Below, one piece after another: positions 1 to 63,521 of a stretch of DNA of 64,000 nucleotides. Location: NCBI GenBank assembly GCA_038231295.1, contig JBBRLP010000009.1:1-64000 (forward strand). The letters run 5' to 3'. The notes beneath the pieces were generated by a model. That model made no database searches. It was not told the DNA's origin and worked only from the letters and a program-made list of their open reading frames with translations. Source of the DNA: Chthonomonadales bacterium. Its GTDB lineage: Bacteria > Armatimonadota > Chthonomonadetes > Chthonomonadales > Chthonomonadaceae. The position numbers and the translations under genes were made by a program. Numbering within the stretch: position 1 is the stretch's first letter; each line of letters opens with the position of its first letter.

Positions 1-253
1 GACGACGCCCCCTTCTCCCCGGTTTAAGTAGGGGACAATCGGTCGGTGAGCAAGTCCTTTCGGAGGGAGGAGTCTGTCTCCTCCCCCTGAGCGCAAGCCT
101 GCTCGAAAACGGGCAAAATACTATTCGTCGGAGCATCTATTAGCGTTACCAAAGCAGTCCATTCTTCTCGTGCGAACTGCGGACATGAAGCATTTCGAGG
201 GAATATGGGGGATCGTTTCGGTCAGAGCAGCAGAGATGGAAGAGTCGTCCACA

Positions 254-56438: not shown

Positions 56439-56540
56439 AATGAATTGCGGGTTTGCCCATCCGTTTGCCCTTCGGAATGAATTCCGAAGGGCAAACACCG
56501 GACGCAACGGCAAAATGATGGGCAAACCCGCAATTCATTC
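56439..56540. repeat. Nested double-palindrome (cruciform/RNA double-hairpin element) between pilB and pilT
   Basis: Outer 24-bp perfect inverted repeat: gaatgaattgcgggtttgcccatc at 56439-56462 and gatgggcaaacccgcaattcattc at 56517-56540. It encloses an inner 34-nt near-perfect palindrome at 56463-56496 (gtttgcccttcggaatgaattccgaagggcaaac). All arms are built from two motifs (ggaatgaatt, gtttgccc) in alternating orientation. This is why ORFs 56326..56616(+) and 56335..56634(-) translate to the same peptides. Confidence 0.7.
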
Positions 56541-56757
56541 GCTGTGTTGGATGTGGCTGCCGCAGGCCGTGCCGTTTCGTCCTGACCGGAGGTTCCCGTT
56601 TCGATGGGAGCCATAACGGAAACGCCTTCCGCACCGCCGACCATTGCGGTCTACGGCGCGGAAGAACGAAGCCATTCGAAGGTACGATTGAACCACGTTA
56701 GCCACTACATCGCGCTTCCAATCCCTGGTCTGCGATTCCACACAGGCGAAGTGCGGT

Positions 56758-58533
56758 TTAGTAACCGGCGGTGAAGACGACGCGCATGACCTCTTCGGGC
56801 GTGGTCTGCTGCGCGAGAACTTTCAGCAGTCCGTCTTCCTTGAGTTCCTTCATGCCGTTGGCTTTGGCGGCCTCTTTCAGGTCACCGAGCGGGGCGCGGC
56901 GCACCACCATTTCGGCCATCTCCGCGTTCATTCGCATTAGTTCGTAGAAACCGATACGGCCCTTGTAGCCCGTATGGCGGCACATCTCGCAGCCACGTCC
57001 ACGCGCAAGGGTCACCAGCTCACCCGGGTCTTCCGGCTTGAAGCCGAAGCGGCGCAGATCGGAACCCGGAACCTCATAGGTCTCCTTGCAGTTCGTACAG
57101 ATTTTGCGTCCGAGGCGCTGGGCGAGAATACCGATGATCGTCGCCGAGATAAGGAACGGCTCGATCCCCATGTCAATAAGGCGGATCGTGGCCGAAGGCG
57201 CGTCGTTGGTATGGAGCGTCGAAAGCACAAGGTGGCCTGTCAGCGAGGATTCAATGGCGATTTCCGCCGTTTCCAGGTCGCGCATCTCTCCGACCATAAT
57301 GATGTCCGGGTCCTGACGGAGGAAGGAGCGCAGGGCGCCGGCGAAATTGAGACCGGCCTTCTTGTTCACCTGCACCTGCGTGATACCGGTCAACTGGTAC
57401 TCACAGGGGTCTTCGACTGTCAGGATGTTGACGCCGACGGTGTTGAGGCGGTTAAGCACCGAGTACTGCGTGGTCGTCTTGCCGGAACCCGTTGGACCGG
57501 TAGAGAGAAGCATTCCGTTCGGCTGGTTGGAAAGTTCTTCCAGTTGGGCCTGCATCTCGGGGGTAAAGCCGAGTTTGTTCAGCCCGATCATGATGCTGCT
57601 CTTGTCGAGAATTCGCATGACGATCTTTTCACCGAACAGGTTGGGCAGACAGGAGACGCGGAGGTCGTAGTCCTTGTTCTCGTAGCGGATGGGGATACGA
57701 CCGTCCTGCGGAACGCGCCGTTCGGCGATGTTCATTTCCGAGAGAATCTTATAGCGGGCCGTCAGCGGCATCTGAAGGTATTTCGGCATCGGCATGGCTT
57801 CATGCAGAACGCCGTCAATGCGATACCGGACGCGCATGTTGCGGGTTCCCGGCTCGATATGGATGTCCGAGGCACGCTCTTTGATCGCCTGCTGAATAAT
57901 CGTGTTGGCGAGGCGAACGATAGGCGCGTCGTCGGAGCCGTCCACACTGGCCTTTTCGTCGTCCGCGTCAATGTCCGCGCTCTTGTCCGCGCCGTAGCGG
58001 GCGATGGCTTCCTTCATGTCGGTCGCCATGCTGCCGCTGCCGAGTTCCATCCCGTCTTTGTTCGGGTTCATTCCGGTCTTGGCGCTGATCTCTCCCCCAG
58101 TGGAGCCGCCGTAGAGACGGGCAATCGCATCGGTAATGTGATCGGGAACGGCTAGAACTGCGCGTACCGTACAGCGCGAGACCAGGCGCAGGTCGTCGGC
58201 AGCCGTAATGTCGTTGGAGTTTGCCATCGCCACATAGAGGATATTGCCGTCTTTTTTGACCGGCAGCACATTGTGGCGTTTCGCGACGTGTTCGGGAACG
58301 ACATTCAGCGCACTCTGATCGGGCTTGTAGACGGTGAGGTCCACGAAGGGCTGACCGAGTTCCGCCGCCTTCGCTTCATAGACGTGCGTGGGATTGAGGC
58401 CGAGGTCTACCAGGATTTTCGCGAGGTCGCCATGCGTAGACTGCTGGGCCTTCTTCGCATCCTCTATCTCCTGTGTAGAGGCGTACCCCTTCTCCACCAT
58501 ATAGTCGCCCAGGCTTTTTCGTGCCATTACCAT
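56758..58533 (-). CDS. pilB: Type IV pilus assembly ATPase PilB (GspE family)
   Basis: 591 aa. The N-terminal GspE_N/MshEN-like domain precedes the ATPase core (LLSTGPTGSGKTTT, DPCEY, IIMVGEMRDLETA, STLHTNDAPS). A C-terminal tetracysteine zinc motif is present (CTNCKETY...CEMCRHTGYKGR). Confidence 0.9.
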   Translation of the reverse strand: MVMARKSLGDYMVEKGYASTQEIEDAKKAQQSTHGDLAKILVDLGLNPTHVYEAKAAELGQPFVDLTVYKPDQSALNVVPEHVAKRHNVLPVKKDGNILYVAMANSNDITAADDLRLVSRCTVRAVLAVPDHITDAIARLYGGSTGGEISAKTGMNPNKDGMELGSGSMATDMKEAIARYGADKSADIDADDEKASVDGSDDAPIVRLANTIIQQAIKERASDIHIEPGTRNMRVRYRIDGVLHEAMPMPKYLQMPLTARYKILSEMNIAERRVPQDGRIPIRYENKDYDLRVSCLPNLFGEKIVMRILDKSSIMIGLNKLGFTPEMQAQLEELSNQPNGMLLSTGPTGSGKTTTQYSVLNRLNTVGVNILTVEDPCEYQLTGITQVQVNKKAGLNFAGALRSFLRQDPDIIMVGEMRDLETAEIAIESSLTGHLVLSTLHTNDAPSATIRLIDMGIEPFLISATIIGILAQRLGRKICTNCKETYEVPGSDLRRFGFKPEDPGELVTLARGRGCEMCRHTGYKGRIGFYELMRMNAEMAEMVVRRAPLGDLKEAAKANGMKELKEDGLLKVLAQQTTPEEVMRVVFTAGY

Positions 58534-59684: not shown

Positions 59685-60422
59685 CTAGATATGGCCTTTG
59701 CGCTTGAACCATTTGAGCAGCAGTTTCTCCGGTGGGCGGCTGACATAGCGCGTATACGGAAATTCGTGCTTATGAATCGGTTTGACCATGATGGTATAGA
59801 TGCCGCTGCGATTGCCGCCGAGAATATCGGTGAACATTTGATCGCCCACAATGGCGGTCGCGGCGGGGGTCGTGTCCATCGCCTCCATCGCCTTGCGGAA
59901 TCCCTGTCGACTCGGCTTCGCGGCCTGCTTCACATAGGCGCAACCCAGACGCTCGGCAATGCGCTGCGAACGGGTACTCAGCACGGAGTTGGACAGGATA
60001 CATAGTTTCACCCCCGCCGCCTGCAATTCCTCCAACCAGTGCGTAATCTCCGCCGTCATCTCTTCCTGATGCCAGAGGACGAGCGTATTGTCCAGGTCCA
60101 GGATGATACCGCGCAGTCCCTGCGCCAGCAGCTCTTGCGGGCGCAGTTCCGTCACGCTCTCGACCATGCGGTGCGGGCAGAAGATGAGCCAGCCCGGACG
60201 CGGTGGGTGCGCGGTCGGGACGGTCTGGCCCTCGACCGCCGCCGCGATGACCTCTTTCACGGTCTCCGGAGAGCTTGTAATAGCCTCCTTGACCGCCTCT
60301 TTCACAACTTCGGTAGCCGTTGGCTGCTGCGGGTCGGGGGCAGGAGTCTCCGGTGCGGTGGGTACGGTCACAGTCACCTCTTCTGTCGGAGGCTCCGGTT
60401 CAGGCGGAAGGGTCTCGCTCAT
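59685..60422 (-). CDS. YqeG-family HAD-superfamily (subfamily IIIA) phosphatase with Pro/Glu/Thr-rich N-terminal extension
   Basis: 245 aa. The core reads GIILDLDNTLVLW...KLCILSNS...GDQMFTDILGGNRSG. The N-terminal ~75 aa are low complexity (PPEPEPPTEEVTVTVPTAPETPAPDPQQ). The start overlaps the mltG stop (ATGA). Confidence 0.7.
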   Translation of the reverse strand: MSETLPPEPEPPTEEVTVTVPTAPETPAPDPQQPTATEVVKEAVKEAITSSPETVKEVIAAAVEGQTVPTAHPPRPGWLIFCPHRMVESVTELRPQELLAQGLRGIILDLDNTLVLWHQEEMTAEITHWLEELQAAGVKLCILSNSVLSTRSQRIAERLGCAYVKQAAKPSRQGFRKAMEAMDTTPAATAIVGDQMFTDILGGNRSGIYTIMVKPIHKHEFPYTRYVSRPPEKLLLKWFKRKGHI

Positions 60423-61588
60423 TCCGCTCCCCCATTCTGCGCCTTGCGCTCCGCTCGAACCTTGCGTATCGCCGCCTCATGTTCGGCCCGTGTCCGCGAG
60501 AAGAGATGCGCTCCGCTCCGAGTGGCGACGTAGTAGAGGTAGTCGTTCCCTTCGGGATGCAGGGCGGCCTCCAGCGAAGCCATGCCGGGATTGGCTATCG
60601 GGCCGGGCGGCAGTCCCGTATGGCGATAGGTGTTGTAGGGCGAGTCTACCTCTAAATCTTTATACAGCACCCGGTCTTTGTGATGGCCCAGCGCATACAG
60701 GACGGTCGCGTCTATTTCCAGTTTCATGCCCTTCTTGAGGCGATTTTCCAATACACCGGCGATGCGCGGGCGGTCTTCGGGGACTTTCGCTTCGCGCTCG
60801 ATCAGCGAGGCCAGCGTAACGATCTCGTGCAGACTGTGACCGCTGGCGGCGATCTCTTGCTCTTTGGGACGTGCGAACCTTCGCGAAAAGTTCATGAGCA
60901 TATCCCGCACGATCTGGCCCGGCGCGGTGCCGGGCGCGAAGTCATAGGTATCGGGATAGAGGTAGCCCTCCAGCGTCTCTTTGGGCAGCGGAAATCCGTA
61001 AGCCCAGCTTGTCCAGGCATCGGGTGCTCCCGCGAATTTCTGAAATGTCTCGCCATCGCAGATTCCTTTGGCATTCAGGGTATTGGCGACCTGGGCGAGG
61101 GTGAAGCCTTCCGGCACGGTGACGCGCAGACGGTCGCCATTGTGTTCCGGCCCCTGCTCCAGCGCGTGCAGTATCTCGTCCAGATTCATATTGCCCGACA
61201 GCGCGTAGCGTCCGGCCTTGAGCCGACTGCCCACGCCACGCCAGCGGACATAGAACTGAAAGGCCAGCGCACTCCGCACCACACCCTCTTTCGCCAGCTC
61301 CTCTCCGATCCCGGCAACGCCCGTCCCGTGCGGTATTTCCACCGTCACGGGCTTGAGCGCCTGCGGGAACGGCAGAAACTGTGACCGCACCGCCGCCGCC
61401 CCGATCATCAGCACCGCGATAATCGCCACCGTCAGGCGCACCTGCATCAGTTTGCGCCGCTCTTCCGCCCGCGTCCGCAGTCCGTTCTTGCGCTGCGGCT
61501 TACTCTCCGGTTCACTCACGCCCCACCCCCGCGTTCTCCCACTGCCGGGAGAAAATTCTTGTTTACGATTCTGACACACTTTCGCCAT
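60419..61588 (-). CDS. mltG: Endolytic murein transglycosylase MltG (YceG family)
   Basis: 389-aa ORF with an N-terminal TM helix (LTVAIIAVLMIGAAAV). The YceG domain has GYLYPDTYDF, EIVTLASLIEREA and DATVLYAL. The start is uncertain: M1 at 61588, or the internal MQVRL at 61447. Confidence 0.8.
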   Translation of the reverse strand: MAKVCQNRKQEFSPGSGRTRGWGVSEPESKPQRKNGLRTRAEERRKLMQVRLTVAIIAVLMIGAAAVRSQFLPFPQALKPVTVEIPHGTGVAGIGEELAKEGVVRSALAFQFYVRWRGVGSRLKAGRYALSGNMNLDEILHALEQGPEHNGDRLRVTVPEGFTLAQVANTLNAKGICDGETFQKFAGAPDAWTSWAYGFPLPKETLEGYLYPDTYDFAPGTAPGQIVRDMLMNFSRRFARPKEQEIAASGHSLHEIVTLASLIEREAKVPEDRPRIAGVLENRLKKGMKLEIDATVLYALGHHKDRVLYKDLEVDSPYNTYRHTGLPPGPIANPGMASLEAALHPEGNDYLYYVATRSGAHLFSRTRAEHEAAIRKVRAERKAQNGGAE

Positions 61589-61607
61589 TTCCGGACAACT
61601 CTGGTTT

Positions 61608-61883
61608 GGACCTCATCCCCCAACCCCCTTCTCCCGGGCGGTCGCAAGCTCCCTGGGAGAAGGGGGCTTTCAATCTCCCCACATCTTCATTACCCAAAAC
61701 GCTCGAAGGGTGGCCTGGGTTGGCCCTCATCCCCACTCCTTTCCCAAAAAGCCTGAGGGAGGACAATTTGCCTGTCTCTCTCGTGGGAGCGAACACGGTA
61801 GGAAATTAGTCAGCCTGACCGCCCCCTTCTCCCAGGGAGCCTAAGCGACCGCCCGGGAGAACGGGGGTTGGGGGATGAGGTCC
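61608..61883. mobile_element. MITE-like element: 276 bp flanked by ~60-bp near-perfect terminal inverted repeats
   Basis: IR-L at 61608-61667 reads ggacctcatcccccaacccccttctcccgggcggtcgcaagctccctgggagaagggggc. IR-R at 61821-61883 is its reverse complement with about 4 mismatches or indels. Each IR is itself an internal hairpin (ccccttctccc ... gggagaagggg). There is no ORF inside. It is inserted between the mltG start and the glycoside hydrolase gene. The 12-mer cccccttctccc also occurs at window positions 10-21. Confidence 0.4.
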
Positions 61884-62039
61884 GACCCCAACCCATCCTC
61901 CGAACGCTCAGAGAAGAACGAGAAAATGACGGAGGGGAGGAGGGCCAGCAGGCAGGGGGGAAGGGCCTGCGTCACGAACTATGGAGGTAAGAATCGCTAC
62001 GAAAATCTCTGGCGGAATAAACAGCAGGGAGTCAACGAG

Positions 62040-63521
62040 ATGAGGAAGAGACACTGGGGTCGCCTTGCGGCGCAATTCGTGCTGGCGGGCATTGGGGTTG
62101 CGGGAACGGCGGCGCGAGCCGAGGCGCCCGCGCCTCCCTATCCGTTCGCAATGTGTTCCAATGGCAACATCGGAACGAACCCGGAGTATGCGGCGAAGAT
62201 GCTGGATGCCGGGGCCAGAATGTGCCGGGCGGATGTGACGTTTGGTGATGTGCGCCCGAAGGAGGGGAACGACCCGAACGGCTGGAATTGGCAGCGCATC
62301 AACGCGCTGGTCGGGGTGCGGAAGGCGCATCCCACTCTGGATTTTCTGGTGCTGCTCGGCTACGGCGCGAAGTGGGCAGAGGATGCCCGCTATGCCGATG
62401 TCAAGAGCGGTGATTCGGCGGGCGGGCAACGCGGTATCGAGATCATGCCCGCCTGGAGTCCGGAAAACCTCTACGGACACTATGTCTACGAGACGGTTCG
62501 CCGCTACAAAGGCAGTTTTCACGCCTGGGAGAGCTGGAACGAGCCGGACTTGCCCGGTCACTCCTTTTTCAAGGGCGGCGGCAGGGAGTTCTTCTCCTAC
62601 CAGAAAGCCTGTTATCTGGCGGCGAAAAAGGCCGACCCGAACTGTACGGTCGTCTTTGCGGGTCTCTGCTTCGCGAATGTCGAGGGCTACCTGACCACGC
62701 ACAAACTCAGCCCGCCGACGCCCTATCCACCGCAGGAGTGCTTTTTCGAGGACTATCTGAAAGCCTGTGTTCAGGACCCCGATGCCCGTAAGAACCATTT
62801 CTATTTCGATGTCATGAACCAGCATACCTACAGCCGCGCCACCGACCTGTACGACTACACGATGGTGGACCGCAAACTGATGCGCGACTATCTGGGGGTG
62901 GAGAAGCCGATCTGGATCACGGAGATGGGTTTCGTGGACGCGAAGGGGCTGTTCGGAGGGGATGCGGACGACTACTGCGACTACCTGCTCCAGTCGTTCG
63001 CGTGGGGCAAACTGGCGAACGTGCAGCGATTCTTTCACTTCCAACTCGACAACTCCAACGGGCATGGCCTCTACTCCGGAATGCTTGGCCCCCCGAAACA
63101 GCCTCTGGCAACTTACCGCGATGTGCTGACAAAAGAGTTCGCCAATGCCCGCTTGCTTTCTCAGCAGCGTGGGAACGCAGGCGTCGGCTTCCTGCAGGGC
63201 CACTCTCCCTTCAAGCCCGACTGGAAGGCTGGCTACGACCTGTTTGCCTTCCAGAGCGGGTCGCGCCGCCTCTGGATGGCTTTCGCCGATACGGAGAAGG
63301 CCGTCGCCATCACGATTCCGGCCCGCCGCGCTCAGGCTATTCTGGTAGATCGGCACAACGTCCGCACACCTCTCGTCGCGCAGAACGGCGTCTATGCCCT
63401 CACCCTGCCCGGAGCCACCAACCGCACAGGCTGGCCGACCGCAGACGACCCGAAAGCAAAAGCGCTTGGCGAACCGGAGCATCTGGTCGGCGGCGCGACC
63501 TATGTGCTAATCGAGGAGTGA
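62040..63521 (+). CDS. Secreted clan GH-A (TIM-barrel) glycoside hydrolase-like protein
   Basis: The ORF is open from 61875. The start was chosen at the ATG at 62040 (MRKRHWGRLAAQFVLAGIGVAGTAARA, a signal peptide). The upstream part overlaps the MITE-like inverted repeat. A WESWNEPD motif (NEP catalytic acid/base of clan GH-A) is present. Confidence 0.55.
   Translation: MRKRHWGRLAAQFVLAGIGVAGTAARAEAPAPPYPFAMCSNGNIGTNPEYAAKMLDAGARMCRADVTFGDVRPKEGNDPNGWNWQRINALVGVRKAHPTLDFLVLLGYGAKWAEDARYADVKSGDSAGGQRGIEIMPAWSPENLYGHYVYETVRRYKGSFHAWESWNEPDLPGHSFFKGGGREFFSYQKACYLAAKKADPNCTVVFAGLCFANVEGYLTTHKLSPPTPYPPQECFFEDYLKACVQDPDARKNHFYFDVMNQHTYSRATDLYDYTMVDRKLMRDYLGVEKPIWITEMGFVDAKGLFGGDADDYCDYLLQSFAWGKLANVQRFFHFQLDNSNGHGLYSGMLGPPKQPLATYRDVLTKEFANARLLSQQRGNAGVGFLQGHSPFKPDWKAGYDLFAFQSGSRRLWMAFADTEKAVAITIPARRAQAILVDRHNVRTPLVAQNGVYALTLPGATNRTGWPTADDPKAKALGEPEHLVGGATYVLIEE

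Follow-up and report, generated by a model that had tools for sequence, protein, structure and literature searches.

Since the 1990s, BoxC/PIT/TM repeats have had the status of orphan elements. In their Escherichia coli form, TM_ECO or BoxC, a C-rich stem is followed by a loop, a G-rich stem, a 3-nt loop and a G-rich third strand (Holder et al. 2015, PMC4666352), according to the pattern CCCTCNCCC N3-6 GGGNGAGGG N3 GGGNGAGGG (PMC4666352); earlier work on BoxC/PIT/TM is that of Hoyne and Maher (2000, 2002, as cited in PMC4666352). E. coli K-12 carries 23 TM_ECO copies, which are always intergenic and include five inverted pairs, 3610 copies are found across 262 proteobacterial genomes, and cyanobacteria and Thermus abound in other G/C-rich versions (PMC4666352). 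BoxC repeats have no linked mobility genes and no link to gene function, and are associated with variability of the locus (PMC4666352). Here we analyzed a 64,000-nt stretch of DNA from a Chthonomonadales bacterium (contig JBBRLP010000009.1, positions 1 to 64,000; hereafter the window), in which an imperfect palindrome of 286 bp (61603-61888) occupies the intergenic region between mltG and a hydrolase open reading frame (ORF). Judged by their sequence, the arms of this palindrome can be assigned to the known BoxC/PIT/TM kind of intrastrand-triplex repeat. We consider it likely that the element is an inverted pair of such triplex-motif (TM) units, a probable gene-less relative of cassettes encoding a DUF559 endonuclease, and a passenger at a synteny break.

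The palindrome and its two triplex-motif units

The inverted repeat is real and lies far above chance. In blastn, the arms (61608-61667 against 61883-61821) align in inverted orientation with 93.7% identity over 63 columns, and a repeat finder lengthened them to 61603-61672 and 61816-61888 by pairing 61603-61628 with 61863-61888, 61617-61645 with 61845-61873, and 61648-61672 with 61816-61840. The 21-mer GGACCTCATCCCCCAACCCCC occurs exactly twice, in opposite orientations, against 0 expected occurrences. The core between the arms has a GC content of 54.5% versus 66-71% in the arms, and the ORFs of 65-77 aa that overlap it gave no Pfam match. Within each arm, a C-rich block pairs with a G-rich block to form a hairpin, with 12 of 12 pairs in the left arm (61624-61635 with 61655-61666) and 12 pairs plus a 1-nt C bulge in the right arm (61822-61833 with 61855-61867). 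The original prediction had described near-perfect long inverted repeats, each of them itself a hairpin, around a short AT-richer non-coding core, and this description holds. The parts of the element, with both units delimited by repeat finder, alignment and triad count, are as follows:

61603-61672, plus strand (C-rich strand on plus): left TM unit, composed of the outer flank GGTTTGGA; the C-rich third strand CCTCATCCCCC (61611-61621); the linker AA; the C-stem CCCCCTTCTCCC (61624-61635); a 19-nt loop 1 (61636-61654); the G-stem GGGAGAAGGGGG (61655-61666); and CTTTCA
61673-61815, no strand: non-coding core, 143 bp, 54.5% GC
61715-61765, plus strand: degenerate third unit in the core, with a solid match in its first 20 nt only
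61816-61888, plus strand (G-rich strand on plus): right TM unit, composed of the C-stem CCCCCTTCTCCC (61822-61833); a 21-nt loop 1 (61834-61854); the G-stem GGGAGAACGGGGG with a C bulge (61855-61867); loop 2, TT; the G-rich third strand GGGGGATGAGG (61870-61880); and TCCGACCC

Read along its G-rich strand, each arm presents the C-stem CCCCCTTCTCCC, a loop, the G-stem GGGAGAAGGGGG, TT and the third block GGGGGATGAGG, which mirrors the G-stem except for a T in place of one A. Because the stem is asymmetric, the third block has no Watson-Crick pairing to the hairpin, and the mirror (triplex) rule alone fits. On its minus strand, the left unit forms 11 of 12 canonical purine-motif triads (G·G, A·A, T·A). 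The right unit forms 7 of 12 in strict register and 11 when the extra C is bulged out, the latter by hand re-registration rather than by computation. A single strand is thus predicted to be able to fold back twice, into a hairpin and a purine-motif triplex. Facing each other, the two units have their third strands on the outside, which gives the element its appearance of 65-70-bp terminal inverted repeats (TIRs).

We compared the element with the described repeats. Complementary C/G stems are present, as is a mirrored G-rich third block after a short loop of 2-3 nt, and the window shares with BoxC/PIT/TM this three-block order, the G/C-richness and the intergenic position, as well as the inverted pairing frequent among such repeats, the lack of a linked transposase and the location at variable loci. 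Within the window, the units are confined to this one locus and a doubtful relic. The TM_ECO consensus is not matched by the window's blocks (CCCCCTTCTCCC, GGGAGAAGGGGG, GGGGGATGAGG): the C-stem has 12 nt, whereas that of TM_ECO (CCCTCNCCC) has 9, and loop 1 measures 19-21 nt rather than 3-6. The spacer between the units is 143 bp long, in contrast to tens of base pairs in E. coli BoxC pairs; the host belongs to Armatimonadota rather than to Proteobacteria; and both units are of one subtype, in contrast to E. coli, where a type A unit is paired with one of type B. In its ends and its pairing the window element is ordinary, whereas its loop and spacer lengths make it an outlier. It is a new BoxC/PIT/TM member, long in both loops and spacer, from an Armatimonadota-like genome.

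In the core, positions 61715-61734 (CTGGGTTGGCCCTCATCCCC) are identical at 18 of 20 positions (90%) to the outer end of the left arm (61601-61620), and are followed by a weak hairpin, CCTTTCCC...GGGAGG. We also considered the core as a row of decayed tandem units; alignment backs the 20-nt match of one unit only. The element is flanked by CTCTGGTTT and GACCCCAAC, and its left junction is also present in an independent Logan assembly (SRR19962015), which breaks 19 nt into the repeat. Folded as RNA, a 301-nt stretch reaches -185 kcal/mol with a z-score of -12.6, and the opposite strand folds equally well because the element is a DNA palindrome.

Related repeats and DUF559 genes in other genomes

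We scanned species-representative genomes with the pattern CCTCATCCCCNNNCCCCNTTCTCCC and found the terminal 25-mer in at least 113 loci (L numbers below). At least eight phyla are represented, and inverted pairs that face outward are frequent. The scan has a small false-positive share, exemplified by L041:1317-1341 from an Acidoferrales metagenome-assembled genome (MAG), which is a long polypyrimidine tract. The following figures hold among the matches listed. These come from Bacteroidota, Chloroflexota, Cyanobacteriota, Armatimonadota, Myxococcota, Peribacteria, Spirochaetota and Fibrobacterota; the Armatimonadota are represented by Chthonomonadaceae and Armatimonas, and complete isolate genomes are included. 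A complementary stem, that is a hairpin, is present in 101 of 116 units, the median first loop being 3 nt. An outward-facing downstream partner lies within 400 nt in 48 of the 101, with spacers of 4-333 nt (median 26), six of them at least 100 nt long and one of these six, of 175 nt, in a Chthonomonadaceae MAG. The units are also repeated within single genomes, for example at over 12 loci in Roseofilum and at over 10 in Roseiflexus SKYB12. Across the family the three-block units are kept, and loops and spacers vary freely.

Membership in a dispersed family had originally been proposed from recurrence of the core 12-mer at positions 10-21 of the window. The family itself is borne out by the public loci, whereas this in-genome evidence is weak, as the 12-mer is present at 8-19 and belongs to the following short match:

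6-19, plus strand: at the window edge, 14 nt (CGCCCCCTTCTCCC) matching the inner end of the right unit (E = 0.055)

No complementary G-stem was found near this sequence, which may be a relic or a chance match. A second copy of the long-loop element was not found in the window, and metagenome scans with the extended outer flank TGGKTTGGMCCTCATCCCCC returned two chance matches without hairpins.

As a separate observation, a TM unit or pair may be contained in longer lineage-specific repeats, which we saw in Roseofilum (L011, L015, L039, L053, L062), Roseiflexus (L019, L032, L045) and Anaerolinea (L013, L043, L114). In a Roseofilum example, the TM lies inside the palindrome CTAAATGAGTTGTG...CACAACTCATTTAG.

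Among the 2479 ORFs of the at least 113 loci, DUF559 (PF04480, E = 1e-27 to 1e-40) was the sole recurrent family apart from common housekeeping ones. It occurs in five loci from five phyla, and TM units flank the gene in each of them:

L007, L024, L076, L091, L098; L125-L141; L144-L155: TM-bracketed DUF559 genes from many phyla, including those of the searches described below

In L007 and L076, the DUF559 gene takes the place of the core in an inverted pair with outward third strands. The units flanking the gene in L024 read CCCCCC-aaa-CCCCCC-aga-GGGGGG, a different sequence with unchanged architecture. In a reverse test, we searched a plasmid collection with a DUF559 protein (34 records) and examined 16 taxonomically spread plasmid loci with 600-nt flanks, using one fixed three-block finder. 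TM units flanked 14 of the 16 genes, at seven of them as outward units on both sides. Their density, 34 units in 7.5 kb versus 10 in 228 kb of control DNA, is higher by about 100 times, and 100 kb of two of the same plasmids contained no TM units. The sequence of the units depends on the taxon and the three-block rule is kept, as seen in Deinococcus, Pseudanabaena, Synechocystis, Neisseria, Photobacterium and Sinorhizobium.

The window element is tied to these cassettes by sequence as well as by arrangement. Its exact 25-mer is present in cassettes L076 and L151-L153, and the 25-mer of the left unit together with the GGGAGAAGGGGGCTTT block is identical to the ends of the DUF559 cassettes L076 and L151. 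Outward units at both ends, as in the window, are found in L007, L076, L151-L153 and the seven plasmid loci. A metagenomic DUF559 protein of 133 aa (P0139) is likewise encoded inside an outward pair, the upstream unit of which consists of the window's 25-mer, TT and GGGGGATGAGG. Another (P0210) and its proximal TM unit recur in identical form downstream of two different contexts. No DUF559 ORF is present in the core or anywhere else in the window.

Several observations concern the borders and sites of the cassettes. Homology between L144 and L145, about 120 nt upstream of DUF559, stops about 7 nt outside the C-stem, in the spacer of the TM pair. On Deinococcus plasmids, the inverted repeat runs 14-18 nt past the TM units; at about 55 nt, the resulting terminal repeats resemble the arms in the window:

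L138:445-565 and 906-960; L139:460-577 and 930-1000: Deinococcus extended repeats

Cassettes also lie between operon genes or inside pglX/DUF1156 genes. TM-flanked DUF559 genes are found in or beside pglX, DUF1156 or large methyltransferase-like genes in L091:4100-5350, L140 (whole locus), L135 and L128, and the L140 cassette is annotated in frame within an ORF of 1621 aa. These cassettes look like insertions into defense genes.

The motif E-x-D-G-x-x-H...D is intact in all five cassette proteins, and the closest solved structure to DUF559 is 3HRL, an 'endonuclease-like protein'. DUF559, Vsr and I-Bth0305I form one PD-(D/E)XK group (PMC3424549). Genes for a 'DUF559 domain-containing protein' are enriched among the targets of programmed inversions with an odds ratio of 14 (PMC9881135), which is the expected product of inverted flanking repeats. 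We found no literature connecting DUF559, ycjD or COG2852 with BoxC or triplex repeats.

The DUF559 gene of E. coli K-12, ycjD, has TM_ECO number 9 about 170 nt downstream, facing outward. By phylogroup, TM_ECO is present in 19-30 copies in A, B1 and C, in 1-2 copies in B2 and in 6-15 copies in D, E and F strains. The published tables give 19-30 copies for K-12, BL21, HS, 55989, IAI1 and W, and 1-2 for CFT073, UTI89, IHE3034, S88 and APEC O1 (Holder tables, PMC4666352), and ycjD is located at a site that holds eefRABCD in other phylogroups (PMC12817139). With these phylogroups, the strains with 19-30 copies fall into the ycjD-bearing clades and those with 1-2 copies into the ycjD-lacking ones (ycjD presence from PMC12817139), a parallel that is suggestive and confounded by phylogeny. 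We also looked for ycjD paralogues at other E. coli BoxC sites; there are none, the gene being single-copy.

Vsr-like (EDxHD) homing endonucleases, such as I-Bth0305I and the 'fractured genes' enzymes (PMC3239194, PMC2677866), belong to the same fold group as the cassette DUF559 proteins (PMC3424549), and the genes of both are small and selfish. The homing enzymes are encoded in introns or split inteins and home to a specific coding site, whereas the DUF559 genes are bracketed by TM repeats. Unlike either system, the window element carries no Vsr-like or DUF559 gene.

REP, BIME and REPIN elements with their RAYT transposases, reportedly described by Bertels and Rainey in 2011 and by Nunvar in 2010, offer a further parallel. 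They too consist of short GC-rich fold-back units that form inverted doublets without target-site duplication, and many gene-less copies accompany a rare protein gene flanked by units. They differ in that their enzyme is a Y1 (IS200-like) transposase, whereas the gene between TM units encodes a DUF559 PD-(D/E)XK nuclease; REPs are also lineage-specific, whereas the TM sequence crosses phyla and has a third, mirror block. In the at least 113 loci, the recurrent ORF families were ABC ATPases, sensor kinases and DUF559, no search having been aimed at RAYT profiles. The Correia/NEMIS, ERIC and Nezha families of miniature inverted-repeat transposable elements (MITEs) are similar to the window element in their TIRs, short non-coding core, length of 100-400 bp and intergenic position beside promoters. 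In contrast to them, the window element has neither a target-site duplication nor a parent insertion sequence, and each of its TIRs is a fold-back triplex motif.

Neighboring genes and related genomes

We compared the locus with eight loci from four relatives, whose MltG proteins are 69-73% identical to that of the window (closest, 73%). The relatives keep the gene order mltG-HAD phosphatase-aroE-pilB, and upstream of mltG they have a response regulator, a 91-aa ORF or deoC. No TM unit lies upstream of mltG in any of these eight loci, and synteny breaks exactly at the position of the element. This break fits the reported link between such repeats and variable loci and is no proof of cause.

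In three of the relatives' loci, a TM-like unit directly follows the stop codon of pilB (L115:8728-8759, L118:8741-8775, L121:8745-8873), whereas the orthologous positions 56700-56760 of the window contain none. Gain or loss of units has thus occurred between related genomes. The spacer after pilB in the window also holds a palindrome of about 105 nt (56440-56545) that is unrelated to the first; it reads GAATGAATTGCGGGTTTGCCCATC...GATGGGCAAACCCGCAATTCATTC, with an inner palindrome around GGAATTCATTCC.

The immediate neighbors of the element are:

60419-61519, minus strand: mltG (YceG family; Pfam PF02618, E = 2e-94), ORF reaching ATG 61588
61521-61553, plus strand: possible decayed unit of weak resemblance, CCCCACCCCCGCGTTCTCCC-ACTGCC-GGGAGAA, with a hairpin at 61534-61553
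62040-63521, plus strand: secreted glycosyl-hydrolase-like protein, weak Pfam PF11790 match (22.7 bits)

In four of the six closest MltG homologues, the first residue is the one aligned with V24 of the window ORF. The start of mltG is therefore most likely GTG 61519 and not ATG 61588, and its ORF is probably over-extended by 23 codons (61519-61588). The distance from the element to this likely start is about 89 nt and not the 20 bp first proposed. The possible decayed unit abuts the likely GTG. On the other side, the first ATG of the 548-aa hydrolase ORF, which extends the gene to 61875, lies inside the GGGGGATGAGG block of the right unit; a start resembling that of a signal peptide, with GGGAG upstream, is found at 62040. 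We agree with the original prediction that this 5' extension is spurious. None of three candidate starts yields a hydrolase protein with an exact match on record.

The spacer between the divergent genes (61520-62039) measures 520 bp, and we found no sigma-70-like promoter in the region. The original prediction had put forward, as a possibility, that insertion into the mltG promoter alters expression of mltG-yqeG-aroE-pilB. At this locus, the demonstrable effects of the element are limited to the spurious extension of two ORFs and to a strong potential for cruciform or hairpin formation between divergent genes. Here it is probably a passenger.

Origin and spread of the pair

We propose that the element would act as DNA, in the manner of a selfish or dispersed repeat and not of a gene or conserved regulator. 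The gene-less pair would be a MITE-like derivative or an empty landing site of a DUF559 cassette, and the DUF559 endonuclease would act on the folded ends. Copies may be spread or exchanged by break repair or recombination and not by cut-and-paste transposition, which would explain the lack of target duplications. Extended to the whole family, BoxC/PIT/TM repeats could be the ends or landing sites of a cross-phylum selfish element, the autonomous form of which encodes a DUF559 (Vsr-like, EDxHD) endonuclease. Gene-less pairs such as 61603-61888 would then represent its MITE-like derivatives or empty homing sites, their folded hairpin or triplex ends being recognized by the nuclease, with spread through break-induced copying or recombination and no target-site duplication. 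We put this general model forward tentatively, with somewhat less than even confidence.

Several points weigh against a gene-less relative of the cassettes and against the general model. The first loops, of 19 and 21 nt, lie beyond the 1-6 nt that define such repeats (ITxF, 1-6 nt; TM_ECO, 3-6 nt), and loops of at least 15 nt occur in 9 of the 101 related units among the matches listed. JGI metagenome scans with the long-loop variant CCCCNTTCTCCCGGGCGGTCGC gave 0 matches. The core holds no remnant of a DUF559 gene and no similarity to cassette interiors, and both copy number and DUF559 gene presence were judged from 64 kb of the host genome. The TM finder and the control DNA behind the plasmid densities were ad hoc, with controls unmatched for some replicons. 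In E. coli, ycjD is stable and single-copy, being present in 3378 of 5426 genomes. The TM_ECO triplex has been seen in vitro and went undetected in vivo, and BoxC has shown neither promoter nor terminator activity in published tests (PMC4666352). Finally, the functional link between DUF559 and the repeats is a putative one, suggested by their association at the sequence level.

A further such point favors an isolated local event in which a single existing TM unit was duplicated in inverted orientation, perhaps by template switching, so that the pair would never have moved as a unit: the arms are each other's only close relatives, and their shared loop is found nowhere else. The decayed unit fragments nearby also suggest local turnover. 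Outward pairs are common in the family across phyla and around DUF559 genes, which argues that pairing is a family trait, and we regard such a duplication as unlikely. This alternative addresses how the pair arose and can coexist with the reading as a gene-less relative of the DUF559 cassettes.

The original prediction was a classical MITE, here understood as an internally deleted DDE-transposon mobilized in trans by a transposase that binds the TIRs of about 60 bp. Its architecture of long TIRs with hairpins and a small, non-coding, AT-richer core stands, and so do ends that derive from a dispersed family; its mobility as a transposon does not. The search for a target-site duplication was negative at the element and at 48 related pairs, and neither the window nor the metagenome scans yielded a further copy. 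The 2479 ORFs of the at least 113 loci include no recurrent transposase family, and the DUF559 nuclease is the only specific recurrent neighbor there. We found no parent element in which the same ends enclose a transposase gene, the genes between such ends being those of DUF559 nucleases, and no plasmid or phage BLAST match, some of which the low-complexity filter may hide. A MITE of this type is therefore improbable.

The element could also be maintained by its host, as an insulator, a nucleoid-protein site or a barrier to replication or transcription between divergent promoters. It does lie between divergent genes, and E. coli BoxC units are commoner upstream than downstream of genes (PMC4666352). 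The published absence of promoter and terminator activity and of any link to gene function (PMC4666352), the absence of the element in relatives and the lack of promoter-like sites here leave this explanation with very little probability.

Least credible of all is a large structured RNA, a 5' leader or small RNA that regulates mltG or the hydrolase, since the very stable predicted fold and the position between divergent genes that speak for it are met by folding of both strands alike, as in any DNA palindrome, by 0 Rfam matches in the window at the gathering score (and chance-level ones only at an E-value threshold), by the absence of the element upstream of mltG in the four relatives, by free variation of loops and spacers around the three-block units, and by the failure of purine-motif triplexes to form in RNA (PMC4666352, citing Semerad and Maher).

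The inverted pair of BoxC/PIT/TM units, as a probable gene-less relative of DUF559 cassettes, is of modest value at the level of the locus, where it misleads gene callers into two false 5' extensions and marks a synteny break. Triplex-motif (BoxC) repeats are abundant in enterobacteria and cyanobacteria, and the present loci extend them to at least eight phyla. A link to genome rearrangement has been described for them, and their origin and spread have so far been unexplained. The association with DUF559 is the part worth following up. The bracketing of DUF559 genes by TM units provides a testable candidate for the missing enzyme of BoxC spread, and points to a possible role for a large family of proteins with a domain of unknown function, of which E. 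coli YcjD is a member.

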